Shown one piece after another: positions 5,698-25,905 of a stretch of 32,000 bases of DNA. The position numbers were made by a program, and so were the translations under genes. The first letter of the stretch is position 1; each line of letters opens with the position of its first letter. The notes beneath the pieces were generated by a model. That model worked only from the letters and a program-made list of their open reading frames with translations. It ran no database searches and was not told the origin of the DNA. The stretch is from Candidatus Heimdallarchaeota archaeon (GTDB taxonomy: Archaea > Asgardarchaeota > Heimdallarchaeia > Heimdallarchaeales > Heimdallarchaeaceae), in contig DAOVER010000009.1 in NCBI GenBank assembly GCA_030668875.1, forward strand, positions 54,597 through 86,596, in the 5' to 3' direction.

Positions 5698-6429
5698 TCA
5701 TTGTTCTTTTGAATATAAGTTAATCATATCCCTCGTTTTTTTAGGACAGTCAGTAATTATTCCATCAACCTGTTTCTTAACAAGTTTTTGAATATCCTTT
5801 GGTCTATTTACAGTCCATGGATAAACTTTCTTCCCAAGACTGTGGTAATAATCTACATGAGAAGAAGACAATAAGCGATAATAAGGATTAATAGCAGAAA
5901 TGAAGGAGTTCTTAGCCATCCTCTTTCCTTTTTTTGCAGGAAATAAGAATAGATATGCGAGAGCATAATCTAAAGCAGAATCACTTAGTCCAAACATCAC
6001 ATCAGAGAGAAAAGAACTTACAACGATTCGGTTAGAATCTGCACCTATATTGTTAAGAAAATCATCGAATTGATTTTTTGTCACAGAACACTTTATTTCA
6101 ATATTAAACTTAATTTTGGGGAGAAAACTCACTAGTACATTTTCCAGAAGTGGTATGTCATCCCCTGAGGGAAGCTTCATATTCTGAATAGCTTCTAGCT
6201 TTGTCTCTGCTATGACATATTCAAATTCTTCGAACTTAATTACTGGATCGTGATGAACTATAAAATTTCCATCACTTGTTAGATGAGTATCTAACTCTAT
6301 CATATCTGCTTTTTGTTGAATAGCTAGTTCAAAGGCTTTCATGGAATTCTGATAAGCATCTTCAGAAGCACCTCTGTGGGCGATTACTATAGGAGAATTA
6401 TGACCTGACATCAAATTATATGAAATCAA
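5698..6429 (-). CDS. Glycerophosphodiester phosphodiesterase (GDPD, UgpQ-like)
   Basis: VIAHRGAS, ADMIELDTHLTSDGNFIVHHD, FNIEIK, WTVN, VDGIITDCP. Confidence 0.93.
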   Translation of the reverse strand: MISYNLMSGHNSPIVIAHRGASEDAYQNSMKAFELAIQQKADMIELDTHLTSDGNFIVHHDPVIKFEEFEYVIAETKLEAIQNMKLPSGDDIPLLENVLVSFLPKIKFNIEIKCSVTKNQFDDFLNNIGADSNRIVVSSFLSDVMFGLSDSALDYALAYLFLFPAKKGKRMAKNSFISAINPYYRLLSSSHVDYYHSLGKKVYPWTVNRPKDIQKLVKKQVDGIITDCPKKTRDMINLYSKEQ

Positions 6430-6523
6430 ACCATCTGATTAACTTTGTGCAAAATATCAAGTTTTTGTTTTTCTTATTCTCGATTCTCGACAGATTTTTA
6501 AAAAAATAAGTGGGGGAGTATAC

Positions 6524-7777: not shown

Positions 7778-7796
7778 TTCCTTTTCTTATTTTTTT
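7778..7796 (+). terminator. Oligo-T terminator after ahcY
   Basis: ttccttttcttattttttt directly after the stop codon. Confidence 0.45.
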
Positions 7797-7870
7797 ATCT
7801 CTAAAATAATGCCACAAGATTTTTAGGATAGAGTTTCCTATACAGAAATATAAGAAAAGGAGAATAAACC

Positions 7871-9205
7871 GTGATAAAGCATCTTCTAATTCTCACAACT
7901 TATGGTCAAATATTCTATAGTCAAGAATTTGAAAAAACAGAACAAACAGTTGATGTTGCTCTGACTGGAGGGTTAATGAGTGCGATTTACTCTATGACTT
8001 CTGAAACCCAAAAAGAAAATATCTCTGAGTTTGAACTAGTAACATCCAGAATCATTTTCCAAGAGGAAGACCAAGATTTACTCTTCGTCCTTACTGTCGA
8101 CAAAAGAATGGATATTAAGGATACAAACGAAATTCTAAAAGCGATCTCAAAAAGATTCTTCGAGAAACATGGAGAGCTAAGAATTGATGGGTTAATCCTA
8201 ACTGATTTCGAGAAAGATGCCACAGAAATAATATACAAGAAGCTTTGGTATCTAAATACACAAGATAGAAAGTTTAGAGTATGGGATTATTTAGCAACAA
8301 TATTTGTCACCCTAGCACTGTGTTGGTATTCTCTTCTCCTTTTTGGTTCTCCACAGATTGTAGGTATGCCTGAATTTGGTATAAAGACCTTTGTCTGGGA
8401 AAGCCTTCTGCAAAGGATAGATGATCCAGGAGGATTTATACTGCAGTTACTGTTTTTAGTGGCAGTCATCGCAGTTCCAGCTGTTGGAATCTACTTGCTG
8501 TTTAAATTCACACATGTTAAAGATATTTTTCGTTTTCCAAGAGATTATCTCTCAAGACCAAGCAGAGCAAGCTATTCAGAACTCCTGCCCAATTATTTCC
8601 TACTTACAATTCTAGTATCGTTCCTAATCTATGTGAGTTTCATGGCTTTTGGAGGAGGATATTTCTCTGAATTGACAGTTTATCCCTTATATGCTGGAGG
8701 GCTGTATTCTGATCTGAATCAACCTTTCGATTTAGGAAATATAGGTGCGAGTATACAAGTGAGTGATATAGGAGATCAAGTATTGATAGGAACAACATCT
8801 TGGTTAACATGGGTATTTGCCTTTCCACTAATTTATTCGCTACTAATAGGGGAAAAGAAATGGCTAAGAATCTATAAAAATTCAGTTTTCATTGCTTCAA
8901 TTACTATTTTCATTCTAATAATATGCTACATATTTGCTGGAGTCAAATATCTTGAAGCGGTTGGATTTCATCCTAAGGATCCTGCAACATTTAGAACGGA
9001 GCAACACTTGCTAAACTTTCAATTACTATCCACTATTCCGCTTAATATTTTCTTCTACGGATTCCTCTTGTTTTTGGGTATAGGCGTGAACAAAGTATCT
9101 CCTTCCAAAACAAGAATTCCTTCTGTAATTGCTTTAGGTATTGGAATTTATTCAACACTAATTATACAGAGGTTAATATTTTTTGCCTTGGTCGCACCTG
9201 CTTAA
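7871..9205 (+). CDS. Longin-like domain fused to a ~7-TM integral membrane domain
   Basis: The N-terminal ~125 aa show longin beta-beta-alpha-beta-beta-beta-alpha order (LLILTTYGQIFYSQEF; LTGGLMSAIYSMTSE; ISEFELVTSRIIF; LLFVLTVD; TNEILKAISKRFFEKH). About seven hydrophobic segments follow from residue ~140 to the C-terminus. Confidence 0.75.
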   Translation: MIKHLLILTTYGQIFYSQEFEKTEQTVDVALTGGLMSAIYSMTSETQKENISEFELVTSRIIFQEEDQDLLFVLTVDKRMDIKDTNEILKAISKRFFEKHGELRIDGLILTDFEKDATEIIYKKLWYLNTQDRKFRVWDYLATIFVTLALCWYSLLLFGSPQIVGMPEFGIKTFVWESLLQRIDDPGGFILQLLFLVAVIAVPAVGIYLLFKFTHVKDIFRFPRDYLSRPSRASYSELLPNYFLLTILVSFLIYVSFMAFGGGYFSELTVYPLYAGGLYSDLNQPFDLGNIGASIQVSDIGDQVLIGTTSWLTWVFAFPLIYSLLIGEKKWLRIYKNSVFIASITIFILIICYIFAGVKYLEAVGFHPKDPATFRTEQHLLNFQLLSTIPLNIFFYGFLLFLGIGVNKVSPSKTRIPSVIALGIGIYSTLIIQRLIFFALVAPA

Positions 9206-9295
9206 CGAAGGGTGGGCCCCCAATCTTTTTCTTATATTCTCTTTAGAAAGTTTTATATCAGAATTTTCCTCTTGTAAAAAAGAAAGTGATTTCCA

Positions 9296-10471
9296 GTGCT
9301 AAGATTCACTATACGCTTCTTCTTTCACAATAAAAAAAGAACATTACAAGCTACAATGACGCTTACCTTAGCATTGGTTATTTTCATTTCTACAACCCTT
9401 CTAGTGCGAGGATATGCAGGAAATATTGCAGGGATGGCATCAATTATTAGACCATCCCCTTATTATCTTATAACTGAATCTGATAAGAGTTTGTCAGAGA
9501 GCAGACTAGGCTTTGAGGTCTATGAGTTTCTTGAAAGTTATTCTATCGATACACCAAATGTCGATGTGGTAGTACCACAAATTTACATCCAAGTAACTGT
9601 CGAAGGGGAAACAGGAGAAAGAATAGATACGCATTTACGCCTACTTAATTTTACAGAATTTGAACTTTATCAAACTCATGCTTATACCTACACATTTTCT
9701 CAATTAGAATCAACCGAGCTAATTATGGGACAACATCTTGCATCATCACTCTCTTCAGGAGTTGGGGCAAATCTGGAACTAGAAAGCTCTGAAATTTATA
9801 TTAATGAGACATTCTCAATGGTCTATGCAAATAATCTAACTGTAGCAAATATTATCAAATCAGGTCAAGAGTATGACCTTGAAATATTAGGAGACATCAA
9901 TGAGTGGCTGCCAATATTAGGTTTAGATTATTATTCTTTTATTGAATTCAAGGTTCTAGATACGAGGGAAGTGGATAAAATCAATGAAGACATAACTGAA
10001 GAATTTAGTTATATAGAGATCACAGAAGAAAAGCAGACACAGAATTTCATCCTTTATGCGACAGAAGAAGTTATTAGAACTCTAACTCTACTTCAAACAT
10101 TGTTCTTCGTTCTGATGTTAGTGTCCATAAGTTATAGCATCTATACACTTGTCAAAGAGAGTGAGGAAGAAATTTTCATTTTAAGATCAATCGGAGCCAC
10201 GAAAGTTCATATCGTGATACTCTTCATGATGCAAGCTGTTCTCATCGGAATAATTTCTTCAATACTAGCAATAATAATCGGGTATCTCTCAGTTACTGCG
10301 ATTGTTGCTATAGTTTCATCGACTATTGGTTTACCCTTTTTAGCACTAAACTTTGAAATTAGTTTAGCAGGAATGATTTTCCTTTTTGCCATAGGTTTGT
10401 CATTGCTTTCTGGGATATATCCATCGTTAGAAGCAGCGAAAATTAAAGTTATCAGGAAGGATACTCAATGA
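9296..10471 (+). CDS. ABC transporter permease, FtsX/MacB/LolE (ABC3) family
   Basis: One N-terminal TM, a MacB-like extracellular domain (ELIMGQHLASSL) and three C-terminal TMs with the EIFILRSIGAT motif (canonical EIG.LRA.GA). Confidence 0.88.
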   Translation: MLRFTIRFFFHNKKRTLQATMTLTLALVIFISTTLLVRGYAGNIAGMASIIRPSPYYLITESDKSLSESRLGFEVYEFLESYSIDTPNVDVVVPQIYIQVTVEGETGERIDTHLRLLNFTEFELYQTHAYTYTFSQLESTELIMGQHLASSLSSGVGANLELESSEIYINETFSMVYANNLTVANIIKSGQEYDLEILGDINEWLPILGLDYYSFIEFKVLDTREVDKINEDITEEFSYIEITEEKQTQNFILYATEEVIRTLTLLQTLFFVLMLVSISYSIYTLVKESEEEIFILRSIGATKVHIVILFMMQAVLIGIISSILAIIIGYLSVTAIVAIVSSTIGLPFLALNFEISLAGMIFLFAIGLSLLSGIYPSLEAAKIKVIRKDTQ

Positions 10472-13400: not shown

Positions 13401-14664
13401 TGGTCTTAGTTATGTTCCAGTAATTTTAGGGTTTCAGGTTTTCTTGTCTGGAGATATCTATAATATCTCCAATCTGGATGTATCGATAACGAGCGAATAT
13501 AATAGTACATCATGGTCAGAAAAAACAGATGGTGATGGAAAGTTGAGTATGCAAATTTATCCAGGCATGTTCGAGGTATACTTCGTATACAACGCTATAA
13601 CTTACAACTTCCTTTTGGATACTGGAGATGGATTAGATCAGACGATTTATATTGGAAACTCACTTGTTGAATTGACTATTCTTGATTATTATGCCGATAG
13701 TCCAATAAGCAATCAATATTGTGTAATTAGAGATCTTAGTGGTAATAGGATAGTTTTTCTTCAAACAAATTCACTCGGAGAAATAAGTACACAAATACCT
13801 GCTGGTGATTATATCATATACTTTAAGCGTTCATATGAACAGCTTAGTTTACCATTCCAAGTTTACTCACAAGGACAGCAGCTTCTATTTGAAATTCCAT
13901 CACTCAAAAAGTGGGTACGATTTGATTTTGTTTATGATAATGGTTCAAAAGTATATAATCTTCCAGTCAGTCTCCAAACAGTTCTAGATGGGAACATTAC
14001 AACGAATACCAGATTGCATTCCAGCATTTCTTTATGGACATCATATGGCGTTGTGAATATTTCATATATACAAATAGACGGGAATTTTGTAACATTAACA
14101 CGCTCCTTTGAACCAGGGAGAGAAGTGATAACTATAACTATCAAGAGTGAAACTGATTCTCCATGGGATAAGATACCATTCAAACCAATAGCTGGATTCC
14201 CCTTCATAGTATCCCTCGCTTTGGAATATATGGACTATTATCTAAGTGGTAGTCTTTTGTTTACATATACATTAGCATACACAGAAATTATTCTGATTTT
14301 ATTTGTTGTAATTGCAAATATGTACTCCATCCTTCAAAACGTGTATAAAGAAAGTAAAAGAGAAACACGAATTCTCAGAATGGTTGGAGGAACAGTTACA
14401 AATACATTAACAACAGTATTTTCCCGTCTAGGTCTGGTTGCAGTGTTTGCATCATTTATTGGGTATGCAATTGGGTTGTCTTTTCTAAAAGTCCTATCAA
14501 GTGCAAATCAAACAGTATTCTTTGGTCATACATTCTCTCCTTCTGGAGGATTGTTTATGTTCTTGATAAATAGTGTTTTAACAATTTTTATTGCAATAAT
14601 TGCAACCCTCATCATCACTAGAAATGCTAGGAAAGAAAGAAGAATTGTTCACTCAAAAAGATGA
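10468..14664 (+). CDS. Giant FtsX/MacB-family permease with ~1000 aa Ig-like/carboxypeptidase-regulatory-like ectodomain
   Basis: ATGA overlap with the upstream permease. N-terminal TM and MacB-type domain (VYFRGVD; VSVGKNYADRNDLEIG), repeated beta-sandwich signatures (TNQDGYASL..G.Y; DNTSPNIT; DLAGN; DTELPEITIVTP; TDGDGKLS; TNSLGEIS) and C-terminal FtsX TMs with ETRILRMVGGT. Confidence 0.85.
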   Translation: MNFRSIFLYNIIPKKRMLIAFIGFLISSTIITGGGILLTSIVESTTSYLGESDDVLVISNPAASTPYTSVVPLELAETIRTIYGVIDVSPEVMTAAVYKDKAVYFRGVDIAKFWEFTEVTYLEGGPLSENDTYDVSVGKNYADRNDLEIGELMTVFSTRSDAAVELRVKSIFITNTLLDDEIIAPLWIGQFFSFETFNFITHIRVKIDLDLIPSKETIRELVNSEYGLTTIINTPGGSTELNATIYIRTGKGTSVEERIIINKYFATFSLFFGEYEIQAEIDGIFSDPFKFIHDHNTTIDIFVNYIEREIQFHVITDEDEPIKDVSVTVYNNEEGLRLLGVNTRRMYTNQDGYASLTIGNGSYTAEFSYGEYWNSFSFVTQETNDYEITLISRHPQITVKSPLNFSTIIGNELNISVIATTGYSIHFYPDGDLGKIQEYHYSTVGMVPPKSMLVPFEDGFHSVTILAYNNDYLQDFDKSKNYATTTLYFTISSDFPTTIDFLNVMNGSQIYPLTILELNETISFNQGLLYKWNNDDWIKANEGYIVSPSEIGIQKLQIKAETTEESRIITYYFITKNSPYKIGIINPPEGLNFKENDTLQTWFNPTFTNITYHWDSNPNTPIAKDGEIIVQSLSEGNHTLYLEISTGNFRKYEIMFDNTSPNITMSVTNGSSVETGSSLSYTINELFTYVMFRWDNQEYSYSYDNSIQVPVENGNHNLSIWICDLAGNVRKANYTYNVIKFVGFTPIDFYLQNEYWGLLNQSYIDLQIITEQSLFKIDYEIDGPSILSFSRTNLEEERVYLHPGLYSLSVTYYLNLFESRQRTFEFQICDGQNASELYGPALDVTYPWSIIVTFPYFDVSFTINNISSTFVTDGTHDIFYMLTTYPGVQYNTKYIIDTELPEITIVTPNKGIEVTDEFLEVESNAVEVYFKQEHDSRIFSYSKTSVFLDYNQEGRQLITFFLVDSYYNTKTVSYVFYNGLSYVPVILGFQVFLSGDIYNISNLDVSITSEYNSTSWSEKTDGDGKLSMQIYPGMFEVYFVYNAITYNFLLDTGDGLDQTIYIGNSLVELTILDYYADSPISNQYCVIRDLSGNRIVFLQTNSLGEISTQIPAGDYIIYFKRSYEQLSLPFQVYSQGQQLLFEIPSLKKWVRFDFVYDNGSKVYNLPVSLQTVLDGNITTNTRLHSSISLWTSYGVVNISYIQIDGNFVTLTRSFEPGREVITITIKSETDSPWDKIPFKPIAGFPFIVSLALEYMDYYLSGSLLFTYTLAYTEIILILFVVIANMYSILQNVYKESKRETRILRMVGGTVTNTLTTVFSRLGLVAVFASFIGYAIGLSFLKVLSSANQTVFFGHTFSPSGGLFMFLINSVLTIFIAIIATLIITRNARKERRIVHSKR

Positions 14665-14680
14665 TACTGTCCGTTCTTCA

Positions 14681-17458
14681 TCAAACATAGACAAAACCAT
14701 AATATCCCTCAAATAACCATGAATTTGCTATTCTGGTAATATTAATTGAATTACCTTGAAATGCTTGCAGAGCATAGTCGTGATTTTCTACAATTCCTTC
14801 TAGATTTTCATACGCTATTTGAATTTCTATATTGTGTAAATATACTGTTTCATCTGGTAGAGTTAACAATGAAATTCGTAGAAAAGATTCTAGTTCAGGT
14901 TTTGAAAATCGGAAACTATTAGATTCTATTCTTACTGTTTCATTTGAAATAGTATTATATTCACTTCTAATAGTAACATTTATTGGTCCAGTTGTTTGAG
15001 CAGCTGTTAAATCTATTTCCGTTTCAATGGATCCTATATTTCCCATAATTTCTGTTGAACCTGGTGTCCTTGCAAGTAAACTTCCCTTATTCAGAGGCCC
15101 TACTAGTTGAATATCAACAGGTCCAACATATGGAGCGTAGCTGTTTGTAGTATACATTATGTATTCTTGATTCGAAAATCTCCATGTAAAGTAGTCATTA
15201 TTATTCATGAATCGATATACAAAGTAATCCCAATAGATTCGATCCAAATATGCAGGAAACCAATCATTGGATGTATTAAGAGCGACAAATATCGAAATAT
15301 CATATTGTTCGAAAAATTCAATCGTTCGCGTCACATTTTCGATTCCTAATGGAAAAGTAGAATTAGCTAACCCTGAATTTTCTATAAATCCAAGCATGAA
15401 TAGATCGATAACAGGTTGAGAGGAATAGTATTCAAGACCTGGTGTATTAATTGAAAGAATCACTAAATTATCTGCATATCCAAGACGGTTAATTGCGTCA
15501 ACTAGTTCTTGATATGATTCTCTTGTAGAATAGGAATACCTCATCTGAAATTCATCTAGATTAAATCCAGTGTCTATTAATAAAGCAAATTGAGCTAAGA
15601 ATGGCGTAAAAAACAGAATAAAGATAAGAAAACCAGAAATTATTTTTTGAAAATTAAACTTTTTATGAAAAATCTGTGAGTAGCTAATTTTCAATCTATT
15701 TTCTTGCCAGATAAGAAGGAAGGTTAGTAGGTTGAATAGGATGATATAACCTAACAACGACCAGATGTGGGTGTGAGCATGATACCACCGTAGATGGAAG
15801 TCTTCTGATACGACTTCAAATGGAATAACGGGATAAAGCGACAGGTACGCACTTGTTAAAATGAAGATACTAGCAAGAAAACCATCTCTCTCTTGACCGT
15901 CTCTTTTGTTGAAGAAAAAAACAACGGCTTCTATTCCTATTGCAAAAATAATTGCAATTGGAACAAGTATTGGGGAAAGGTATCTGATTGACCCATTTGC
16001 AAAGAATCCTTGCCAGAACACATAGAAGAATATTAACCAAAGCATCAACTCATTGTTCTTTTTGTGAGCTTTGATGAACCCAAATATCTTAAAGAACAAC
16101 CATGTTCCAGCAAACATTGCTGCAATTAAAATAGAAAAAGAGGAGGAAACAAAAGTTGCGATATGGGCATTTTCCAGATAAGTTGTTGTTTCAGGAAGAG
16201 CGATTCCTGGCCACGATAAGCTTATCTGATTCACGTGCAAGTTCACATAAAGATTAAGAAGATAATCTTGCACACCTGGGACAGATAGAATATGAATCCC
16301 CCATAATAATGCAGCTGCTAAGGGGAGAGAAAAGATGCCAAGAACAAATAACCAACGAATATACGAAAACTTCAACGTTTCACTTGATAAGATGAGATAT
16401 ATGCAAAATGCACATAAGAGGAAGATAAGAATACCCGTCCCCAAATATACCTCGAATATGGATTTTCGAATGAGCTGAAAAGCAAATCCAGCAACAATAA
16501 TCGAGCGAATAACTTTTCCTATCATATCTGAAGGCATTGCAACTAAAATTACTAATGGGATAACAAAACCACTGACTTTACTTAAAACACAACCACTTAG
16601 AGCTAATGACGCAAGTAGAGCATTATAGAGCTGTTCTTTGAAATTTTCACTTTTCAGAAATTTTTTGAAGAAGAAGTATGCTGCTGTTGTAAAGAATGTA
16701 ATGTAAATCTCTTGATAATATTGAAATTCATAAATTAAGAAAAAAGTAAAAGGAGTTGCTAATAAAGCAATTGAAGAAAGTAAAGAAGATTTCTTTGTTA
16801 ATCCTTCAATTTTTGCTATTTTATAACATAGTAAAACTACTCCAACAAGAAACAGCAAAGGAATCAGATGAATCATTTCTGATTGTGTTACAAAAAATCC
16901 ATACGCAAATAGAAGGATATTCACAGGTGGTTTGAATTGTGGCATAAAATTTAATTCATTAATAATTCCTAATTGCCCTGTAACAAATATTCTGAAAGAG
17001 TTAGGTAAATAAAAGTGCAAGAAATCCCATCCTCGAAGAGGATAAACTAATCCTTGAAGTGTGAAAAAGAAGATCATTAATCCTATTATAATTTGTAATA
17101 ATGTCTCAAGTCCTTGTGGGATTTTCTTCTTCTCCTTCAGAATGAGCATTGGAAGTTTCCTTCTTACCCAGAGATATATTTTGAAGACCAGATATGCAAA
17201 GGCAATTGATAAGTATACATATACAAATCGTTCTAAGATAGTTGTATTTTCTATTTTATCGGCAATTATTGCTATTATAAGCATGGGGACAACTAGAGAG
17301 ATTGTTCCAAAAATTAGAGATTCTACAAAATAATCTATATAGGAACTTGAAGAATCAATTTTCATTATTTTCTTCTTGAACACATCGACAATCAATAATC
17401 CCATTCCAAGTATTGAGACAATGGGTATTATGACCCTTATGTCAAGTTCTGTTCTCAT
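14681..17458 (-). CDS. GT-C fold membrane glycosyltransferase (ArnT/PMT/GT83-like), 925 aa
   Basis: More than 12 TM segments. First extracellular loop with WDFLHFYLP...KPP (acidic motif typical of GT-C), late IRYLSPIL (RY..P) motif, and a C-terminal extracellular domain (VILSINTPGLEYYS) with several N-x-S/T sequons. Confidence 0.75.
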   Translation of the reverse strand: MRTELDIRVIIPIVSILGMGLLIVDVFKKKIMKIDSSSSYIDYFVESLIFGTISLVVPMLIIAIIADKIENTTILERFVYVYLSIAFAYLVFKIYLWVRRKLPMLILKEKKKIPQGLETLLQIIIGLMIFFFTLQGLVYPLRGWDFLHFYLPNSFRIFVTGQLGIINELNFMPQFKPPVNILLFAYGFFVTQSEMIHLIPLLFLVGVVLLCYKIAKIEGLTKKSSLLSSIALLATPFTFFLIYEFQYYQEIYITFFTTAAYFFFKKFLKSENFKEQLYNALLASLALSGCVLSKVSGFVIPLVILVAMPSDMIGKVIRSIIVAGFAFQLIRKSIFEVYLGTGILIFLLCAFCIYLILSSETLKFSYIRWLFVLGIFSLPLAAALLWGIHILSVPGVQDYLLNLYVNLHVNQISLSWPGIALPETTTYLENAHIATFVSSSFSILIAAMFAGTWLFFKIFGFIKAHKKNNELMLWLIFFYVFWQGFFANGSIRYLSPILVPIAIIFAIGIEAVVFFFNKRDGQERDGFLASIFILTSAYLSLYPVIPFEVVSEDFHLRWYHAHTHIWSLLGYIILFNLLTFLLIWQENRLKISYSQIFHKKFNFQKIISGFLIFILFFTPFLAQFALLIDTGFNLDEFQMRYSYSTRESYQELVDAINRLGYADNLVILSINTPGLEYYSSQPVIDLFMLGFIENSGLANSTFPLGIENVTRTIEFFEQYDISIFVALNTSNDWFPAYLDRIYWDYFVYRFMNNNDYFTWRFSNQEYIMYTTNSYAPYVGPVDIQLVGPLNKGSLLARTPGSTEIMGNIGSIETEIDLTAAQTTGPINVTIRSEYNTISNETVRIESNSFRFSKPELESFLRISLLTLPDETVYLHNIEIQIAYENLEGIVENHDYALQAFQGNSINITRIANSWLFEGYYGFVYV

Positions 17459-19140
17459 GTTTGTTTGTCCTCATATTCTTTCTCGACATCATCTGCTGTT
17501 CTAGTAGCAGCAAAAACTTTCATTCTATCTATTTCTCTGAAATGTGTAATTGTTATGATTATAGGTATAGTTAGTGAGACTGCAGCAATTATAAACCATC
17601 CGAACAACGCATCACCTTTCCAGATGGTTTCCCAACTTGCGATATAATACAGAACTGCAAGTCCAAGTAATCCTATAGACCAAAGCGTATATTTAATTTT
17701 TGCACTCATTTTACCCATAGTTCGAGTTTTTTCTTTAACAGTTCGATCAAAATCTTTCTTAACACCTAGAAGAGCACTCAAGACAGCCCAAATGAGGAAG
17801 GATTGTGCTGTAAGCATGAGCATATAGAAAGCAGAAATAGTCCAATTCATTCCGAAGAAGCCACGAAGTTTGATCATTCTATCCTCTTTGCTTTCTCTAT
17901 ACCAAGAAACATAAGCCATTATCAAACTTGCAAAAGCAATAAGAAGTGGAGCAGCAAGTAGCAAGGGAACTGTATCGTTTAAAATTGGTCTAACAAAATT
18001 GAACTCTTCAATTTCATGTTTGGTTCTTAACATATACATAATATAAAGAAGAAGATTAACAAACCACATTGTTAACCCGATTATGGGTGTGAACAATGTA
18101 GACAAAATATCAACTTTGTTTATCACAGAGTTTTTACCTTTCAAAATTTTCCATAATCGTTTTCGTATGATTGATGTGATTCCATTAGTCCATCTCCACA
18201 CTTGGTTTATCATGCTTATAGGATTCCATGGAACTAACCCTCTAGAACAAATCTCATGAAGATAACGAGTTTTGTATCCCTTTGACATTAAAGCGAAGGA
18301 TGTATCAGTATCTTCAGCTAAAGTGTCATCATGAAATCCACCATACTCCAACAATAATTCAGTTCTAAACATACCTGTAGTTCCAGCAAAAATGACACCG
18401 TTCCTTGTTCCTCTACTTTTCTGATAAACATGGAAAAATTGTGTGTGGATATATGCACTGCTGCGCTGCAAATAATTATCTTGATTAACAAACATTGGCT
18501 TACCTTGTACTAATATTATATCATCTTCAGTAAAACCAGATAAGCAGGTACGGATGAAGTTTGGAGTAGGAATATGATCGGAATCTAAGATTCCGACAAA
18601 ATCACACTTGATATGTTTTAAAGCATTATTAATTGCTCCAGCTTTGAAACCTTTTCTTGAATCTCTATGGATGAATTTGACATTTCTTTCTTTGCAAAAA
18701 ACTTCAATATCAGTAGATTCTCCTGCAGGACTATCATCACAAACCACTACTTCAAAGCGATTTTTAGGATAATCAATATTTAATGCTCCATCAATTGTTT
18801 TGGAAACCACTGTGAGAGGTTCCTTATAGAAAGGGAGAAAGATAGCAACTTTGGGGAGAGGATCTGAAGATAAATATTTGTTTTTGTCATCCCTCAATAA
18901 GCGATATTCAGAAGAAGAACCGATATAATAGTATACGAACACAGAATAAAATGATGAGAATAATTCAATCAGCAATATGAGAAAATTTAGAATTAAACCT
19001 ACTATTGCTTTCCAACCACTTAGACCAAATTTGGTTGTATATTCAGTAACAATATAGATGCTACTTGTAATTGCATAGTAACCCAGAAAAGCAAATAAAA
19101 TAACCGCAAGTGAGTACCATAGTGTTTTTTTCCAACCCAT
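17455..19140 (-). CDS. Processive GT2 glycosyltransferase, cellulose-synthase-like (paralog 2)
   Basis: CDDS, FKAGAINNAL, LDSDH (DxD), VQGKP, IFAGT, LAED (TED-equivalent), QVWRW (QxxRW). Two N-terminal and about 5-6 C-terminal TMs; no PilZ domain. Confidence 0.9.
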   Translation of the reverse strand: MGWKKTLWYSLAVILFAFLGYYAITSSIYIVTEYTTKFGLSGWKAIVGLILNFLILLIELFSSFYSVFVYYYIGSSSEYRLLRDDKNKYLSSDPLPKVAIFLPFYKEPLTVVSKTIDGALNIDYPKNRFEVVVCDDSPAGESTDIEVFCKERNVKFIHRDSRKGFKAGAINNALKHIKCDFVGILDSDHIPTPNFIRTCLSGFTEDDIILVQGKPMFVNQDNYLQRSSAYIHTQFFHVYQKSRGTRNGVIFAGTTGMFRTELLLEYGGFHDDTLAEDTDTSFALMSKGYKTRYLHEICSRGLVPWNPISMINQVWRWTNGITSIIRKRLWKILKGKNSVINKVDILSTLFTPIIGLTMWFVNLLLYIMYMLRTKHEIEEFNFVRPILNDTVPLLLAAPLLIAFASLIMAYVSWYRESKEDRMIKLRGFFGMNWTISAFYMLMLTAQSFLIWAVLSALLGVKKDFDRTVKEKTRTMGKMSAKIKYTLWSIGLLGLAVLYYIASWETIWKGDALFGWFIIAAVSLTIPIIITITHFREIDRMKVFAATRTADDVEKEYEDKQT

Positions 19141-19142
19141 GT

Positions 19143-20792
19143 CTAAACCTCGATATCATTTTTTTTCCTTGGAGTAAAATAAGGTTTGTTATGTCTCGTT
19201 GTCACATAGAAAAACAGACTAACGGGAAATGTTGCAACAAGCGAAAGTCCTAGAAGACCCAACACAATCCATAAACTTTGACTACCAAAGAAATCAAAAT
19301 AAGCTAAAACTATTAACCCAGCACCGAGAAGGGATATAATAGCAGAAACTGGAATGAAAGGTACTTTCTCGTTCCATTGATCCCTCCTTCTATCTGGCTC
19401 TCTTCTTCTGAAAATGGTTTTTATCACTGCATAGACAGTAAATGGGTTTAGAGTTAGTGCAATAAGGAAAAATAAGAGTAAATCAAAAATATTAATCTTA
19501 AATTCCCTACCTTTTTTGGAAAATAGAACGGCAATAATTGCTGAAATCTGATAAGAGATAGCTAGTGCAACAGGCATAATGATCAGAGGAGGAAAGTTTT
19601 CAGTGGGAAGACGGATAGCTTTGCTTCCAGTAAAGAACATTATAACATAAAAAAAGATTGTCAGGTACATCGACGAGGCAATGAAGAACAATAGAGTACT
19701 AAAGGAAAGGTCAAGCTTATCAAATAAAGACATTCTTCCTTTTAGTATGTTTTTCCATCTCAATTTCAGTGTGTGCATGCTTCCTTTTGCCCATCGGAGA
19801 ATTTGAGAGAGCAAAAGAGGAAAATTTGATGGAACTAAACCAAAACTACCATATTCATCAACTAAAACACTATCATATCCTCTGGTTAAAATTTGAATAG
19901 TTAAATCAACATCTTCGGTGAACGTTGCAATGGGGACCCCTCCAACTTCATCTAGAACTCTTTTCTTGAAACACGCAGTAGAGCCATTAAAAATAACCTT
20001 TTTACGTTTATTTTTTGATCTCTCAAATACCTCAAAAAACTGAGCATACATCACTGCTTCCCATATTTGTAATTTCGATTTTATATTTCGGAAATTAACT
20101 TTGGCTTGTACAAATGCAATATTTTCATCTTGTACTAACTTGGAGATACTCTTTTTAAGAAAATTTGGAGTTAATCTGTGGTCATAATCAAGAAACACCA
20201 CATAATCAGTCTTAACTTGCTTAAGCATAATGTTCAGCATACCTGCTTTGAAGTTGTAATTCTCTCCATAATAGATGTAAACAGCTCCATGTTTTTCAGA
20301 AAGGAGAGAGATTTCTTTATCATACTCAGGAGACTTCTCAGAGTCATCTCCAATAAGAATGTGGACTTTATTATGTAGATAATTAGAATCGCGTATAGAT
20401 TGCAATGTCTCATGAAGTACATCAAGGTTAGGGGAATGAATTGGCACCAATACACTTACCATTGGAAAATCTTCTATTGAATCATTAATCTCTTCCTCTT
20501 TAGCTAAAGGTATAGAACAAGTTGTACTCATGTGTTTGAATAACATTACTGTGTAGAAAATGCTCATAGCTTCAACAATCAACGACAGGAAATTGAGAAT
20601 TGCTTGAACAACAATGAGGGTAACCGATGATTCCAAAGGGGGGGTAATTACAGATCCTATTATTAAAACTAGAGACCAGACAAAATAAATTATTCCAACA
20701 AGCAAAACAGCAATAGTAAAAACAAATAGAAAAAACCCTAGGATTTTCCATGTTTTTGATTCTCGTTTTGTGTTTTGTTGATTAAATCCCAT
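19143..20792 (-). CDS. Processive GT2 glycosyltransferase, cellulose-synthase-like (paralog 1)
   Basis: GDDS, FKAGMLN, LDYDH (DxD), VQAK, IFNGS, FTED, QILRW (QxxRW). Two N-terminal and about 5-6 C-terminal TMs; no PilZ domain. Confidence 0.9.
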   Translation of the reverse strand: MGFNQQNTKRESKTWKILGFFLFVFTIAVLLVGIIYFVWSLVLIIGSVITPPLESSVTLIVVQAILNFLSLIVEAMSIFYTVMLFKHMSTTCSIPLAKEEEINDSIEDFPMVSVLVPIHSPNLDVLHETLQSIRDSNYLHNKVHILIGDDSEKSPEYDKEISLLSEKHGAVYIYYGENYNFKAGMLNIMLKQVKTDYVVFLDYDHRLTPNFLKKSISKLVQDENIAFVQAKVNFRNIKSKLQIWEAVMYAQFFEVFERSKNKRKKVIFNGSTACFKKRVLDEVGGVPIATFTEDVDLTIQILTRGYDSVLVDEYGSFGLVPSNFPLLLSQILRWAKGSMHTLKLRWKNILKGRMSLFDKLDLSFSTLLFFIASSMYLTIFFYVIMFFTGSKAIRLPTENFPPLIIMPVALAISYQISAIIAVLFSKKGREFKINIFDLLLFFLIALTLNPFTVYAVIKTIFRRREPDRRRDQWNEKVPFIPVSAIISLLGAGLIVLAYFDFFGSQSLWIVLGLLGLSLVATFPVSLFFYVTTRHNKPYFTPRKKNDIEV

Positions 20793-20853
20793 TAGAGCAT
20801 CTACTCTGCGTCTACAACCCCTTATATGAGGCTTGCTATTTAGATTTTCTGTT

Positions 20854-20937
20854 TAATAGGGAACATTGAGATCAGTGTGAGCTGAGTAAATCATGGACTT
20901 CATAGGTTGTTCGCTATACATCATATCTATCATTCCC
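20854..20937 (-). ncRNA. Box C/D 2'-O-methylation guide sRNA (double guide), predicted targets LSU rRNA U2552 and A2577 (E. coli numbering)
   Basis: Minus strand reads GGGAAUGAUAGAU [C: AUGAUGU] AUAGCGAACAACCU [D': AUGA] AGUCC [C': AUGAUUU] ACUCAGCUCACA [D: CUGA] UCUCAAU GUUCCCUAUUA. Box order and spacing are canonical, and an AGA/UCU stem closes the C/D K-turn. Both guides are complementary to recalled conserved LSU rRNA sequences (AGGUUGUUCGC and GUGAGCUGGGU). The ends are approximate. Confidence 0.85.
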
Positions 20938-21018
20938 AGCTCAAATTATAAATGACTAAAATAAGATTATTGTTTGTAAAGAAAATATGAAAAAAGTTAG
21001 AAAAATTAAGAATCTTAG

Positions 21019-22065
21019 CTAAGATTCCTCTGTTGCTTCTTCAGTTTCAACTTCTTCTTGATCCGCTATTTCAAAATCTCCTTTGGAACTAACCAGCCCT
21101 TGTCTCTGCATTTGAAGGACTTTATCTTTTTGTTGTTTTAGTGCATCTATTGCACTTTTTGGCACAGGTGGAGGGTCATAACGTTTTATCAATGCAGTGA
21201 GAGCTTCTTTCTCCTTCTTCAAATTTAGTCTGTCACATACAGAGTAGAATAGTTCATCATAAAGGAAAAGCTCCTCTAATAGCTGATCATAATCTTTTCT
21301 TAATTTTTCATCCTTCAGATTCTTGATATCATCAGAAACAATCTCTTTGATGTAAATATGAATGATATCGTCATTTTCTGTAATTTCTCCTAGGTAGAAA
21401 ATGAATTTTGATAAATCTGCTTTAGCATCATGGACTGCAATATTGATAAGAAGAGTTCTAAAGTCATCAACAAATATTTTTGCTAAAGCTACCTCATCGA
21501 TTTTTAAATACTTAAGTAAATCTTCTTGCCAATTATCATCTAACTTGGAATAATTAAATAACAGGGCGGGTACCAAATAATCAAACAAAGGTTTTCTTAT
21601 TGCATCAATTTCCTCATCTGATAATTTCTTCAAGTTCTTAAGAAATATCTTGTAGAATTGAGCATTTCCACTAGCTTCAAAGTAACGTATAAGAGGCAGA
21701 ATCATTTGATGTTTTCCTAGTCCTTTGTAAGCGATTTTTGATAGTAGTTTATTACCACCAATAAGTAAACCAATCATTACAGGTATCAATATTAGAAATG
21801 CCCATAATTGGTTACTGTTTTCAGAAGGCACTAATACAAAAATGAGAATGACACTTGTCATTGTTATCACCATAGTTCCGATCTGGATATATTTTCTGAA
21901 TTTAGAAGCATTGGGAGAATTAAAGCAAAGAGCACAAATTTTCTTATCTTCAACTGTTCTAGCTTCCTCTGAATCACATATTGGTAAACCACAGAGAGCG
22001 CATTGACCTGTGGATTTATTGTGAAAATGAAAAGCACAAATCTCTTCGTTTGCAGTTTTGGACAT
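21019..22065 (-). CDS. Membrane protein with N-terminal B-box-like zinc finger, 2 TMs, helical cytoplasmic domain and acidic tail
   Basis: CAFH-x8-CALC-x4-C-x13-CALC, two hydrophobic helices at about residues 60-105, a long amphipathic helical region, and the tail EEVETEEATEES. Confidence 0.7.
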   Translation of the reverse strand: MSKTANEEICAFHFHNKSTGQCALCGLPICDSEEARTVEDKKICALCFNSPNASKFRKYIQIGTMVITMTSVILIFVLVPSENSNQLWAFLILIPVMIGLLIGGNKLLSKIAYKGLGKHQMILPLIRYFEASGNAQFYKIFLKNLKKLSDEEIDAIRKPLFDYLVPALLFNYSKLDDNWQEDLLKYLKIDEVALAKIFVDDFRTLLINIAVHDAKADLSKFIFYLGEITENDDIIHIYIKEIVSDDIKNLKDEKLRKDYDQLLEELFLYDELFYSVCDRLNLKKEKEALTALIKRYDPPPVPKSAIDALKQQKDKVLQMQRQGLVSSKGDFEIADQEEVETEEATEES

Positions 22066-22263
22066 AATTGAGAATAATAAGGTGTTTTTTTAACTTTATC
22101 GACCTTAACCTCTTTTGTTTTCTAATTAACTTGGAAACAGTTTGTATTAATAGAACAGAAATTAATCGTTATCGGTTAAATTCGTCTTCCCTATAAGCAG
22201 AATTTATAAGTTGAAACAAAAATATAAACTTGTAAGTAAATCCGATTAAGGTAGTGATGTTCA

Positions 22264-22869
22264 GTGAGCAGTGACGATACGGTTCAAATAATTATACGCG
22301 AAGCAAAAGATATTCTTGCAAAACAATCAGCTGAGGATTTCTTGAGTTATGTAGAAGGCAAGACCTCAGAGTTAGAAAAATTAGATCAGATTCTAGAATC
22401 TATTATTCTATGGCACTTTGTTGCAGAAACCATGGAAAATTTCGAAGAAGAAGACTATTTAGCTTACGCTTACAGCAAATTAATCAGCAGATATATGCTA
22501 GTTGATAATCTTAACAAAGCTGAGGAAATTTATGAAGATTCTGAGGATAAAAATCTTTCCAGTTTCCATTTAGACACTGTAAAAACAATTTTTGCTGGAA
22601 GACAACAAACTAAAGGAAATCGAGAAATCATTAAAATCCACCGTATGGATGTTTTTGGGGATCTTGAACTAATCCCAGCTAGTCCAAATATATATTTTGA
22701 GAATGTCTCAATAATCAGAAGGTATATTCATAATAATCTACCAGAAGGAACCTTTTCCATAGTTATCCTAAATCACAAGAATAACACTGAAGAAGAAATA
22801 GAGATTTCGACTGAAATTCTTTCAGAATACGAAGTAATATCAATGAACGAAAAAGTGAGGATGAACTAA
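22264..22869 (+). CDS. Hypothetical acidic protein, helical (TPR-like) N-terminal half
   Basis: 201 aa ORF with GTG start. LAYAYSKLISRYMLVDNLNKAEEIYE resembles a TPR helix pair. There is a 1 nt gap to the next ORF. Confidence 0.7.
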   Translation: MSSDDTVQIIIREAKDILAKQSAEDFLSYVEGKTSELEKLDQILESIILWHFVAETMENFEEEDYLAYAYSKLISRYMLVDNLNKAEEIYEDSEDKNLSSFHLDTVKTIFAGRQQTKGNREIIKIHRMDVFGDLELIPASPNIYFENVSIIRRYIHNNLPEGTFSIVILNHKNNTEEEIEISTEILSEYEVISMNEKVRMN

Positions 22870-22870
22870 G

Positions 22871-24433
22871 ATGCCAGAGAAACAAGCGATTTGGGGATCT
22901 GCCAGATATTTCATCAAAATTGACCCTTACACAAATGTTTTCAGTACTTCAATGAGTGCATTAGTATCATTCTTCGACACTCATGGACTAATTAATGAAA
23001 AGGAATGCAAAAATCTTCAGGAGATTGCTAGAACTGTGCAGGAGTTCTGGTCAACTATTCTAGCTCCTCACGAAACAAGAGTTGCTAGGTGGATAGTTGA
23101 ATATTTATCAGAGATAAATATCATTGGAAACTACGATTTACTCTTGCGTCTTCTTCGTTCTGATGAAGACATGGCAGAGGATTTGGACGATCTTATTAAA
23201 GATACAAAATCAGTTGCTACAGAGGATTTTGAAGAAGCCTTTAACATTCCAGAAGACACAAAAATAATCGGTCACGAGATTACCATTACAAGACTTCCTG
23301 AAGATGATTACTTGAGAAATGAACTTCTACAAAAAATCCTAGAAGACAACAAATATCAGGTTCCATTATCAATAAAAAGTAGAAGTCAATTTAAACTTCC
23401 TAATGGCGAAATTGCAACTGTTGAAAAGGAAAATACTTTAGGAATTGGAGAAACTCAAAGAGATGTTAAGCTGTTCTCTGTTTTGGAAAACGAATATGAT
23501 GAACCAATTACAGAAGTTGAAATTGTAGATGAAATCCCCTATTACTTTGAAATGGAAGATATGGGTATAGATAATTTGGAAATTGAGCCAACTAAAGAGA
23601 AAAAGGAGAAGGTTTTAGAGGTTATCTGGAAAATCCCAGAAATCAAACCAAAAGAAAAAGTTGAAATTAATTACAAACTTGCAAAACGAATAAATCGCAC
23701 AATTCTTGAAATCGTTCAAAATGAAGTTATAGCAGTTTTGAATGTTTTTGAAAATATCGAAGCTAAAGGATTAGAATTCCTCGCTCACACAGAATACATC
23801 AATATTCACAATAGACCTTTACATGAATTGCACATTGTTGATGAAATACCTCCCGAGTTTAATATTATAAGAACAAATCCTGAAGCCTTACCCCCAACAG
23901 GTGTTATAGAAAAAGCAAAGTTAAAAGGAATTAACATCCAATGGAAACAAAAGAATGTTAACGTAAATCAAACAATTGAAAAAAGCTATACATTAGATTA
24001 CTTCCCATATCTTTTCCGAGGTAAGAAAGTCATAGTAAATGAGGAAGGAAGTACACTATTCAAGATTGCCAAATTTATAATGCCTTCTGAAAAAGAGATG
24101 GGTTACACCGTGCTATATATCATAAAGAACGTGAAATCTGAAACTAGTGACTTAATTTCTTTGATGGATAAACTTCCAGTAAATCACACAATTGTTGGAA
24201 GAAAACCTGAAGAATCTCAAGTTATGGAGCAAATTGACGATGAAGGAGAGAAAATTATCACATGGATTGTAGAAGCTCCTACAGCTAGAAAAAGCACAAC
24301 TCTGAAGGTTTTTGTATCGGGTGATACACCGCCGGTATTTGATATATTCAAGGTTTTCATAGGAGATAAAGAGGAAAAGGAAGTGTTAGAGAAAGAGACT
24401 ACTATTAGAAGAGAGATGGTTAAATCTCCCTAA
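22871..24433 (+). CDS. Hypothetical cytoplasmic protein with three Ig-like (DUF11/TRAP-beta-like) repeats
   Basis: Three N...(V/I)xD(E/K)(I/L)P...(I)xW...Y repeats: VEIVDEIP/VIWKIPEIKPKEKVEINY, LHIVDEIP/IQWKQKNVNVNQTIEKSY and ISLMDKLP/ITWIVE. No signal peptide or TM is visible. Confidence 0.7.
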   Translation: MPEKQAIWGSARYFIKIDPYTNVFSTSMSALVSFFDTHGLINEKECKNLQEIARTVQEFWSTILAPHETRVARWIVEYLSEINIIGNYDLLLRLLRSDEDMAEDLDDLIKDTKSVATEDFEEAFNIPEDTKIIGHEITITRLPEDDYLRNELLQKILEDNKYQVPLSIKSRSQFKLPNGEIATVEKENTLGIGETQRDVKLFSVLENEYDEPITEVEIVDEIPYYFEMEDMGIDNLEIEPTKEKKEKVLEVIWKIPEIKPKEKVEINYKLAKRINRTILEIVQNEVIAVLNVFENIEAKGLEFLAHTEYINIHNRPLHELHIVDEIPPEFNIIRTNPEALPPTGVIEKAKLKGINIQWKQKNVNVNQTIEKSYTLDYFPYLFRGKKVIVNEEGSTLFKIAKFIMPSEKEMGYTVLYIIKNVKSETSDLISLMDKLPVNHTIVGRKPEESQVMEQIDDEGEKIITWIVEAPTARKSTTLKVFVSGDTPPVFDIFKVFIGDKEEKEVLEKETTIRREMVKSP

Positions 24434-24522
24434 TTTTCTTTACCTATCTTAGTGAATCATGATCAGAGCTCTTATTTTTTAAAAAGTGAAGTTGGATATG
24501 TCTGCCTCCACAGAATTTATTT

Positions 24523-25905
24523 ATGACTGATAATAGTTGTATTTCGAACATGAAAAGTCACTTTGATGTAATAATAGTAGGAGCGGGTCCAGCTGGTGTT
24601 AGTGCAGCAATATCATGTATTAACAACGAATTAAAGGTAGTTTTAGTGGATTCAAAGAAAAAGGAAAAAATAGGCGACAAAGTATGTGGAGAAGCTATCT
24701 CAAAAGAAACATCACATACAGCATCTGATTTATTAAAAGTGCAATACCCTCATGGAGAAGAAATAAACGCTAATGTAAAAGAATTGGTTCTTCAAACAGC
24801 GATAGATGAAGATCATATAGCTTTACCTGCAATTGGCTATATGGTAAACAGACACAAATATGGCCAAAGGCTACTACAAGACGCATTAGAGAGAGGAGTT
24901 AAATTACTTGACCAAACAAAAGTGATCAGAACTATAATAAAAGAGAAGAAAGTCACTGGAGTAGTAATTAAAACTTTAAACAAGGAGGAAGGAGAACTTT
25001 ATTCAAAACTGGTAATTGATTGCAGTGGAGTAAGGGGAGTTGTTAGAACAACAATAGATGAATCTCTTGAACCATTTCTATACACTAAATTAACAAAATC
25101 AGACTATGCTTCATGTTATAGAGAAATAATTGAATTAAACAAAGAGCATGATTTAGATGGAAAAATTATTCTCAAATATGAAAAAGACATCCCTGCACCA
25201 GGTTATATCTGGTTTTTTGCTGATGGGTGTAAAAGACTAAACTGTGGTACAGGGTTCATCAAAGAAGGTATAAATAAGGACAAAAGTGTAAAATCAGTCT
25301 ACTTCAATGCTATGGCAAAATACTATCATCCTGAAACATACACTGTTTTAGATGGTAGAGGGGGAAATGTTCCTATTCGTCCTCCATTATGGAGCGCCGT
25401 TGCACCAGGGTTATTAGTAGCTGGAGATGCAGCTTTTCATGCAGATCCTTTGACAGCAGAAGGTCATGGTCCTGCTTTATTAGCAGGATATTATGCTGGT
25501 CAAATTGCAAAGGAAGTAATTGATAGAAACGAATATTCTACACAAGCTCTGTGGGGATATAACAGACATATCTTCTCTAGTTTTGGTTCAGACAATGCCC
25601 GTAGCAGAATTTTGACTATAACATTGGAAAAACTAGGAGCAGATAATCTTGAATTTCTCCTCACGAGAAAGGTAATCAAGCAGGCAGATCTAACATCAGA
25701 AGGCATATTAAAGAAAAATTCACTTTTTAATCTTCTAATTCGAGCAATACGTTGTTTACCAAAAATAGGTTTGTTAGTTATAATTAAAAGAACAATTGAT
25801 GTAAGTAAAGCCGTTGCGGAATTGTTCGACGAATATCCAGAAACACCAGATAAATTCGGTGAATGGGTGGCAAAAATAGAAAACTTATATGCTAAATTAA
25901 ATTAA
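24523..25905 (+). CDS. Geranylgeranyl reductase family flavoprotein (digeranylgeranylglycerophospholipid reductase-like)
   Basis: FDVIIVGAGPAG, GDKVCGEAI, PGYIWFF, GGNVP, GDAA..ADPLTAEGHGPALLAG. Start may be Met10 (24550). Confidence 0.88.
   Translation: MTDNSCISNMKSHFDVIIVGAGPAGVSAAISCINNELKVVLVDSKKKEKIGDKVCGEAISKETSHTASDLLKVQYPHGEEINANVKELVLQTAIDEDHIALPAIGYMVNRHKYGQRLLQDALERGVKLLDQTKVIRTIIKEKKVTGVVIKTLNKEEGELYSKLVIDCSGVRGVVRTTIDESLEPFLYTKLTKSDYASCYREIIELNKEHDLDGKIILKYEKDIPAPGYIWFFADGCKRLNCGTGFIKEGINKDKSVKSVYFNAMAKYYHPETYTVLDGRGGNVPIRPPLWSAVAPGLLVAGDAAFHADPLTAEGHGPALLAGYYAGQIAKEVIDRNEYSTQALWGYNRHIFSSFGSDNARSRILTITLEKLGADNLEFLLTRKVIKQADLTSEGILKKNSLFNLLIRAIRCLPKIGLLVIIKRTIDVSKAVAELFDEYPETPDKFGEWVAKIENLYAKLN

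Follow-up and report, generated by a model that had tools for sequence, protein, structure and literature searches.

Processive membrane glycosyltransferases of family GT2, among them BcsA, CesA and the hyaluronan synthases (HAS), are recognized by the motifs D, DxD, xED and QxxRW in a GT-A domain. In BcsA (4hg6, 5ej1, 9fnn), this domain is combined with interface helices, six channel helices and an FxxTxK gating loop, as well as with extra N-terminal helices, a PilZ domain, a BcsB partner and a nearby hydrolase. BcsG, which acts beside BcsA, modifies nascent cellulose with a membrane-lipid donor. GT-C enzymes modify O-antigens and teichoic acids as members of three-component systems. In such systems (GtrA/GtrB/GtrC, ArnC/ArnT, CsbB/GtcA/YfhO), the GT-C enzyme glycosylates polymers outside the membrane (PMC11127046). 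Here, we describe a locus in a 32,000-nucleotide (nt) stretch of DNA (G+C ~34%; the window in the following) from a Candidatus Heimdallarchaeota archaeon (GCA_030668875.1, contig DAOVER010000009.1, positions 54,597–86,596), in which two BcsA-like GT2 genes, GT2-A and GT2-B, are followed by a third gene, gene 3, whose product, GT-C, is predicted to be a GT-C-fold glycosyltransferase, and in which an FtsX-type permease pair converges on this gene. Its parts, two BcsA-type synthases, an FtsX pair and a GT-C enzyme of a new family, are together a variation on known kinds of system. A literature search found no paper describing this locus. In our analysis, the operon probably builds a cell-surface glycan.

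An initial annotation of the window had claimed an operon of three coupled genes, with 2 nt between the first two and an ATGA shared by the second and third, and on the minus strand, coordinates and junctions indeed read this way (Table 1). The GT2-A/GT2-B junction is GAGGT-TTAG-AC-ATG, where GAGGT spans the last two codons of GT2-A, while the GT2-B/GT-C junction is ACATGAGA, with the ATGA overlap and a GAGGA 11–15 nt upstream. All three genes are real and have full-length orthologues, which share 40–90% identity with them. Database homologues of the three carry the annotation Heimdallarchaeota/Heimdallarchaeaceae, as expected for a Heimdall-group Asgard archaeon.

The two GT2 proteins carry complete sets of processive motifs, which the annotation had listed correctly: GDD, FKAG..N, DYD, IFNGS, FTED and QILRW in GT2-A, and CDD, FKAG..N, DSD, IFAGT, LAED and QVWRW in GT2-B. 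In both, D, DxD, xED and QxxRW lie in a GT-A domain, as in BcsA, CesA and HAS, and residues D136, D186, D188, E276, D277 and W317 are invariant in our GT2 alignment (A2). Both match general membrane-GT2 Pfam families, and the best NCBIfam match of each is the cellulose-synthase catalytic subunit, well under the equivalog cut-off: TIGR03030 gives 132.5 bits for GT2-A and 169.4 bits for GT2-B (cut-off 699.1), and PRK11498 gives 87 and 141 bits (cut-off 992). A Pfam scan yields no PilZ match (PF07238) in either protein, and the GT2-B model described below stops at the last channel helix. Likewise, a domain scan of the neighbours within the window reveals neither BcsB nor a glycoside hydrolase, in agreement with the annotation. 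Given the scores under the cut-offs and the lack of PilZ and of a BcsB neighbour, we do not assign GT2-A or GT2-B to the BcsA equivalog group. Both are nevertheless of the BcsA type and PilZ-free. Their closest solved relatives are the BcsA proteins of Rhodobacter and E. coli, with E-values of 6e-24 for GT2-A (8e-24 for 4hg6) and 6e-33 for GT2-B (7lby), and the two paralogues share 26% identity over ~500 amino acids (aa). A search of the ESM Atlas with GT2-A returned generic GT2 clusters alone.

In the residue alignment of GT2-B with BcsA, CDD falls on the UDP-binding DD, FKAGAIN on HAKAGN, DSD on DxD, IFAGT on FFCGS, AED on TED and QVWRW on QxxRW. The BcsA sequences FFCGS and TED are thereby replaced by IFAGT and AED in GT2-B, and FFCGS by IFNGS in GT2-A. 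An AlphaFold2 model of GT2-B, built with 27 homologues (mean pLDDT 88.4, pTM 0.87), matches BcsA structures with Z-scores of 27–30 over 477–488 residues and root-mean-square deviations (rmsd) of 3.1–3.3; for instance, E. coli BcsA aligns with Z 30.2 (477 residues, rmsd 3.2) and Rhodobacter BcsA with Z 28.3 (486 residues, rmsd 3.1). The superposition extends from residue 1 to 561, taking in the interface helices and every channel helix as well as the GT domain. The model thus matches BcsA throughout the channel core, which directly continues the GT domain, and the objection that such an enzyme might have no translocation channel fails for GT2-B. The channel-like transmembrane (TM) helices that the annotation had ascribed to both proteins are therefore borne out by a model for GT2-B; for GT2-A, they are indicated by its alignment to GT2-B and a matching 2+5 hydropathy pattern. 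The sole low-confidence loop of the GT2-B model, residues 464–476, holds F464-x-x-T467-x-K469, a motif kept in the GT2-B lineage, whose counterpart in the alignment with BcsA is the FxVTxK gating loop. At this position, GT2-A has, unlike BcsA, no gating motif and reads FRRREPDRRR, a degenerate sequence.

Plant CesA and hyaluronan synthases reach Z-scores of 20–23 to the GT2-B model (HAS ~22). A further match, PcManGT (6yv7; Z 23.9 over 331 residues), bears on the question of whether the GT2s are polymer synthases at all. This minimal cellulose-synthase-like enzyme has reportedly been proposed to add one or few sugars, and the GT2s of our locus might do the same on a membrane lipid or lipid-linked oligosaccharide, which GT-C would then transfer or extend. 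Glyco_transf_21 scores, which exceed the cut-off of that family, would fit such a role. However, GT2-B has all six channel helices of BcsA and the gating-loop motif, unlike PcManGT, and its matches to BcsA are clearly better, so that we consider a non-polymerizing function very unlikely. GT2-B would, in our view, be a PilZ-less processive synthase-translocase.

The annotation had further placed the GT2s near the CslA-CslC/NdvB branch. To place them, we computed a maximum-likelihood tree of 40 proteins. It comprises orthologues of GT2-A and GT2-B, the genome's three remaining BcsA-like paralogues and non-Heimdall homologues from two homology searches; among the latter are BcsA-like proteins that bear PilZ and a group marked by a CslA-like FNGT...QxxRW...TPKF signature. 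Named CesA, CslA/C, NdvB, PgaC and HAS references are not part of the tree, and the placement consequently builds on profile scores, structural matches and unnamed database relatives. Every Heimdall sequence falls into a single clade (SH-like approximate likelihood-ratio test (SH-aLRT) support 97), sister to the BcsA-like group and separate from the FNGT group. When the GT2-A lineage is forced together with the FNGT group, the resulting tree is rejected (log-likelihood difference 18.2; approximately unbiased (AU) test, p 0.004). Hence, the FNGS motif of GT2-A is no sign of an affinity to CslA, CslC or NdvB, and we abandon this placement, with the restriction that the test included no named plant or NdvB sequences. 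Instead, the tree indicates that GT2-A and GT2-B are old paralogues born within the Heimdall lineage, next to BcsA. The GT2-A side of the paralogue clade has expanded further than the GT2-B side, and the genome carries five BcsA-like GT2 genes. Elsewhere in it, contig C83 bears a tandem array of three membrane GT2 genes (positions 5698–10383, locus L033; 541, 543 and 402 aa), the first two of which are recent paralogues of the GT2-A lineage; another paralogue lies on contig C71.

The product of gene 3 has no Pfam, NCBIfam or PDB-sequence match of its own, and a profile of its 22-sequence family found nothing among PDB chains. A weak signal connects it with the PMT families: four of the 22 homologues match Pfam PMT (best E 3e-7), and the window's protein scores 23.3 bits against PMT_2 in a whole-genome scan (cut-off 26.1). 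Its AlphaFold2 model (mean pLDDT 75.6, with low-confidence outer loops) is more informative: the top 42 rows of the structural alignment are all GT-C enzymes, with Z-scores from 18.4 to 10. They include yeast Pmt1/Pmt2 (Z 18.4), STT3 (Z 17.1), ArnT (Z 17.0) and ALG9 (Z 16.1), as well as AglB, PglB, Emb, AftD, DPY19, ALG3 and others (Z 16.5 to 10). Foldseek likewise matches the model to AglB (E 9e-6), and its neighbours in the ESM Atlas are the ArnT, PMT_2, DUF6077, RgtA-like, Dpy19 and DUF2298 families. By its modelled fold, the protein is a GT-C enzyme, as the annotation had proposed, and it represents a new family that is found by no profile library.

Three extra N-terminal TM helices precede the GT-C core, which starts at about residue 117 (alignments begin at ~110–119), and the tail (residues 640–925) is modelled as an outer alpha/beta part followed by an immunoglobulin-like (Ig-like) beta-sandwich. 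The predicted catalytic residue is D145, within the sequence RGWD(F/A)LHFY, seven residues past core helix 1 and within the first outer loop. It is kept in 18 of 19 aligned rows, the remaining one being a fragment, at identities of ~25–60%. Also conserved in the family are K176 and P178 (FKPP), Y248 and Q249, E429 (YxENAH), K457 and R492 (SIRYL). Of these, K176, E429, K457 and R492 are, like D145, invariant throughout the class, even among homologues of ~25% identity. Since the Lys/Arg-rich loops 28–39 and 99–116 fit the cytosolic side by the positive-inside rule, D145 would lie outside the membrane. The tail, with its 286 residues, contains six N-x-S/T sequons, compared to two in the first 639 residues. 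A feature search of the ESM Atlas with the tail yielded sub-0.9 leads alone, and its Ig-like matches (Z ~8, adhesin repeats, RhoGDI) are too generic for us to call it a carbohydrate-binding module.

Like PMT (GT39), ArnT (GT83) and PMT_2, the protein has the GT-C fold from the first core helix on, conserved basic residues and, where the first outer loop starts, an acidic residue. It differs from them in scoring under all Pfam thresholds, in its three additional N-terminal helices, in its tail and in having no MIR domain match; lacking both a Pfam match and MIR, it does not qualify as a PMT family member (GT39, PF02366). With AglB/STT3 (GT66), in turn, it shares the 13-helix GT-C core and the outer alpha/beta and beta domains (Z 14–17), but not the WWDYG motif, whose nearest equivalent is YWDYF with a non-conserved D (consensus N). 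It is not the oligosaccharyltransferase of the organism either, as WWDYG is absent and the genome carries a separate, canonical AglB/STT3-family gene, its sole match to this family, on contig C95. A polyprenyl- or dolichyl-phosphate-linked sugar would be the donor expected from the fold.

To see how widely these genes occur together, we searched 300 genomes from the phylum by profile. Members of the GT-C family occur in all 27 genomes of the window's own family (f1), in 10 of 11 genomes of family f2, in the single genome of f3, in 3/3 of f4, 6/21 of f5 and 2/2 of f7, and in one of the 68 genomes of f14, a family of another class; no other family searched has it. Among the 300, its occurrence is thereby limited to genomes of the class Heimdallarchaeia and one other. 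A long form of ~900–990 aa with an extra tail occurs in f1, f3 and f4, and a short form of about 730–840 aa in f2, f5 and f14. None of the matches is a fused GT2/GT-C reading frame.

In Candidatus Heimdallarchaeum endolithica, the gene order is the same as in the window, with a P0107-like gene, GT2-A, GT2-B, GT-C with the overlap and the convergent large FtsX gene, followed by the small FtsX gene, a 428-aa membrane protein and S-adenosylhomocysteine (AdoHcy) hydrolase. GT2-B abuts GT-C in 24 of 28 f1 genomes and in all three f4 genomes. In the window's own genus, this holds for its genome and 19 of 21 others, with the other two broken by contig ends, and in two further f1 genera for 2/2 genomes each. 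With 27 genomes showing it, the abutment is not a matter of chance. Compared across genomes, the locus falls apart into three modules. The first consists of P0107 and GT2-A: P0107 orthologues (40–42% identity) are found directly upstream of GT2-A in five loci (L002, L003, L041–L043), and they stay with GT2-A even where it is split from GT2-B and GT-C. The second consists of GT2-B and GT-C, whose coupling is a derived feature of f1 and f4. In locus L003, for instance, the two genes stand behind the FtsX pair and share its strand; GT2-A and the P0107 orthologue lie 5 kb off on the opposite strand. The third, and the deepest, is the ancestral link of GT-C with the FtsX pair, which spans five families (f1, f2, f3, f5 and f14): the pair adjoins a GT-C homologue in 15 of 20 fetched loci, and four of the remaining five are cut by contig ends. 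In an f2 locus (L051), GT-C, FtsX small and FtsX large even run in the same direction; 50 nt separate GT-C from the FtsX genes, which share 4 nt with each other. The FtsX proteins are ~390 aa and 990–1400 aa in size, with Ig-like and CarboxypepD_reg repeats in the ectodomain, and no ABC ATPase gene is adjacent to the pair among the Pfam-scanned neighbours in the window, L051 and L054.

These patterns support in part the initial view of a three-gene operon whose two GT2s might act as a heteromer. Within the family, all three genes are conserved together and coupled, and the objection that they might not be co-conserved fails there; at the class level, it holds. An obligate GT2-A/GT2-B heteromer and a fixed three-gene unit are both weakened, as GT2-A and GT2-B are found together on a different contig than GT-C in one genome (G219), and GT2-B and GT-C away from GT2-A in L003.

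We tentatively favour the reading that the locus encodes a cell-envelope glycan module, in which GT-C glycosylates the nascent GT2-B chain outside the membrane. GT2-B, a BcsA-type processive synthase independent of cyclic di-GMP, would use a nucleotide sugar of the cytosol to polymerize a beta-linked glycan and would push it out through its own seven-helix channel. GT-C would be made together with GT2-B through the overlapping stop and start codons and, with its active site facing outward, would add a sugar from a dolichol-phosphate-linked donor to the emerging chain. The closest relatives are beta-glucan synthases, from which the acceptor-side motifs differ (IFAGT, AED). That GT2-B and GT-C act in one pathway in the window's family is argued by the stop/start overlap being kept through rearrangement, the two genes remaining coupled where GT2-A has relocated (L003). 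Furthermore, a GtrA/DPMS-type gene on contig C19, outside the locus, makes a supply of lipid-phosphate-linked sugar plausible.

With its two enzymes, possibly in contact, the proposed module would resemble the BcsA-BcsG complex (9fmz), which is among the best structural matches of GT2-B, and in which a membrane enzyme likewise stands beside a synthase and modifies the growing chain on the outside. This is an analogy, as BcsG is not a GT-C enzyme and transfers phosphoethanolamine, and we claim no homology to gene 3. The three-component systems (PMC11127046) offer a second parallel, with a GT2 gene adjoining a GT-C gene and a GT-C enzyme acting outside on a finished or nascent glycan. Their GT2s, however, are short GtrB/DPM1-like polyprenyl-phosphate glycosyltransferases, while those of our locus are BcsA-like with a channel. 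Since the adjacent GT2s are BcsA-like and the only GtrA-type match is on contig C19, the locus is not a member of the Gtr-type systems.

Several observations weigh against the reading that we favour. In the model of GT-C, confidence is low for the first outer loop, which holds D145, and the locus has no gene for a dolichyl-phosphate-sugar synthase or flippase. One genome, G086 (89% complete), has GT-C and the FtsX pair, yet neither GT2-A nor GT2-B is found in it at E 1e-40. Families f2, f3, f5 and f7 hold a B-like GT2 elsewhere in the genome, apart from GT-C, which in f2 and f5 is far away from every GT2; in f5, the B-like GT2 is commoner than GT-C (19/21 vs 6/21 genomes), and in locus L004 it lies alone among housekeeping genes. 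With GT-C occurring without the GT2s and a B-like GT2 without GT-C, neither requires the other in general, and their coupling is derived. The genes could consequently have separate functions: GT-C would be a dedicated, PMT/TMTC-like protein glycosyltransferase whose targets are surface proteins, either the FtsX stalk or others, the GT2s would secrete a free exopolysaccharide, and the operon would reflect nothing beyond common envelope regulation. The GT-C/FtsX link, which is far older and wider than that between GT-C and the GT2s, and Pmt1/2 as the best structural match of GT-C would both suit this scenario. Against it speak, however, a stop/start overlap that is found in two families and has survived rearrangement, which exceeds the usual loose co-regulation, and a GT-C that has no MIR domain and no PMT-family score in the window. 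On balance, we regard separate functions as rather unlikely.

The synthase-dependent O-antigen route, with WbbF and then WaaL, suggests yet another division of labour, in which GT2-B would elongate and export a polymer on a dolichol-phosphate primer and GT-C would move the whole chain to a protein or lipid acceptor. GT-C enzymes need lipid-phosphate-linked donors, and none is encoded nearby save for possible GT2 products; moreover, the long form of GT-C occurs in the taxonomic order in which the coupling is seen (f1, f3 and f4), and the short form (f2, f5 and f14) is uncoupled. However, this correlation is based on three lineages, in one of which (f3) the long form is present without adjacency, enzymes of the BcsA type normally need no lipid primer to start and the sequence of GT2-B shows no sign of lipid priming. 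A synthase-ligase pair thus seems distinctly unlikely to us.

In the module that we favour, GT2-A and the upstream P0107 would constitute a second, more derived synthase unit, and the product would probably come to lie at the giant stalk of the FtsX pair, either on it or around it; this pair is the ancestral partner of GT-C. P0107 may be a regulatory or accessory subunit. Its family is tiny, with 18 matching clusters among 1.84 billion proteins, and its members are always found right upstream of GT2-A; it features an N-terminal four-Cys zinc ribbon and a conserved YEPPxVPK near the C-terminus. Taken further, the modules might form a proteoglycan-like surface organelle, in which a beta-glycan extruded by the BcsA-type synthase is grafted or elaborated by GT-C on the giant Ig-like stalk of an ATPase-less FtsX heterodimer, an idea that we consider improbable but worth stating.

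Table 1. Features of the locus, with positions given in window coordinates.
Feature	Positions	Strand	Remarks
GT2-A, BcsA-like membrane GT2, 549 aa	19143-20792	-	2+5 predicted TM helices; catalytic motifs complete; gating-loop motif lost
GT2-B, BcsA-like synthase/translocase core (predicted), 561 aa	17455-19140	-	FxxTxK gating-loop motif; without PilZ
Gene 3 (GT-C), 925 aa	14681-17458	-	Predicted GT-C-fold glycosyltransferase, new Heimdallarchaeial family
ATGA start/stop overlap, GT2-B/GT-C	17455-17458	-	Read from the sequence; the two genes abut in L002 and L003 too
2-nt gap GT2-A/GT2-B, GAGGT just upstream	19141-19142	-	Read from the sequence
P0107, zinc ribbon + 2 TM helices + helical cytosolic domain, 348 aa	21019-22065	-	Upstream neighbour of GT2-A, conserved
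FtsX-type permease pair, 391 aa + 1398 aa	9296-14664	+	Pfam FtsX, CarboxypepD_reg; convergent on GT-C
Spacer 5' of GT2-A, 226 nt	20793-21018	-	AT-rich TATA-like stretches

The surroundings of these genes show some further features. The FtsX pair and GT-C are separated by a gap of 16 nt. Within the spacer upstream of GT2-A, the minus strand has strings that resemble box C (ATGATG) and box D (CTGA), which follow the TATA-like TTTATAATT; an Rfam search of positions 14000–23000, which include the spacer, gave no meaningful match. On the far side of the FtsX pair, a plus-strand gene (7871–9205) encodes a 444-aa protein without a Pfam match, in which a soluble N-terminal stretch of ~130 residues is followed by many TM helices. 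The gene keeps this place, with AdoHcy hydrolase as its other neighbour, in the whole family (54–64% identity in L041–L044). In one of these loci, L044 (contig C6 of G086, from a genus of the same family), a leucine-rich repeat protein and an open reading frame of >6000 aa lie upstream of GT-C. The window also codes for a class I lysyl-tRNA synthetase (lysS) and a geranylgeranyl-reductase-like flavoprotein. The latter belongs to three plus-strand genes between P0107 and lysS (22264–25905), together with two of unknown function that encode 201 aa and 520 aa; these two unannotated, divergent genes (22264–24433) look like soluble cytosolic proteins. All three are found in the same spot in L041 and L042 and are absent there in Candidatus Heimdallarchaeum endolithica. 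Of the five sequencing runs listed for this genome, four are from marine sediment, its likely source, and one is from a cold seep, with a small share; all are recorded as DNA, with no RNA run among them.

Heimdallarchaeia are usually placed as the archaeal group closest to eukaryotes, and to our knowledge almost nothing is known about their cell surface. The locus described here is conserved and lineage-specific, and its parts have well-understood relatives. It therefore provides concrete, expressible candidates for the synthesis of a surface glycan, namely a PilZ-less BcsA-type synthase and a GT-C family that is not recognized by profiles and has a testable predicted catalytic Asp. If the proposed coupling is true, a channel-forming synthase working together with a GT-C enzyme would combine in a new way the two main routes by which glycans are assembled outside the cytoplasm; if the surface organelle, too, were real, its machine of synthase, GT-C and FtsX would be without counterpart in bacteria, other archaea and eukaryotes.

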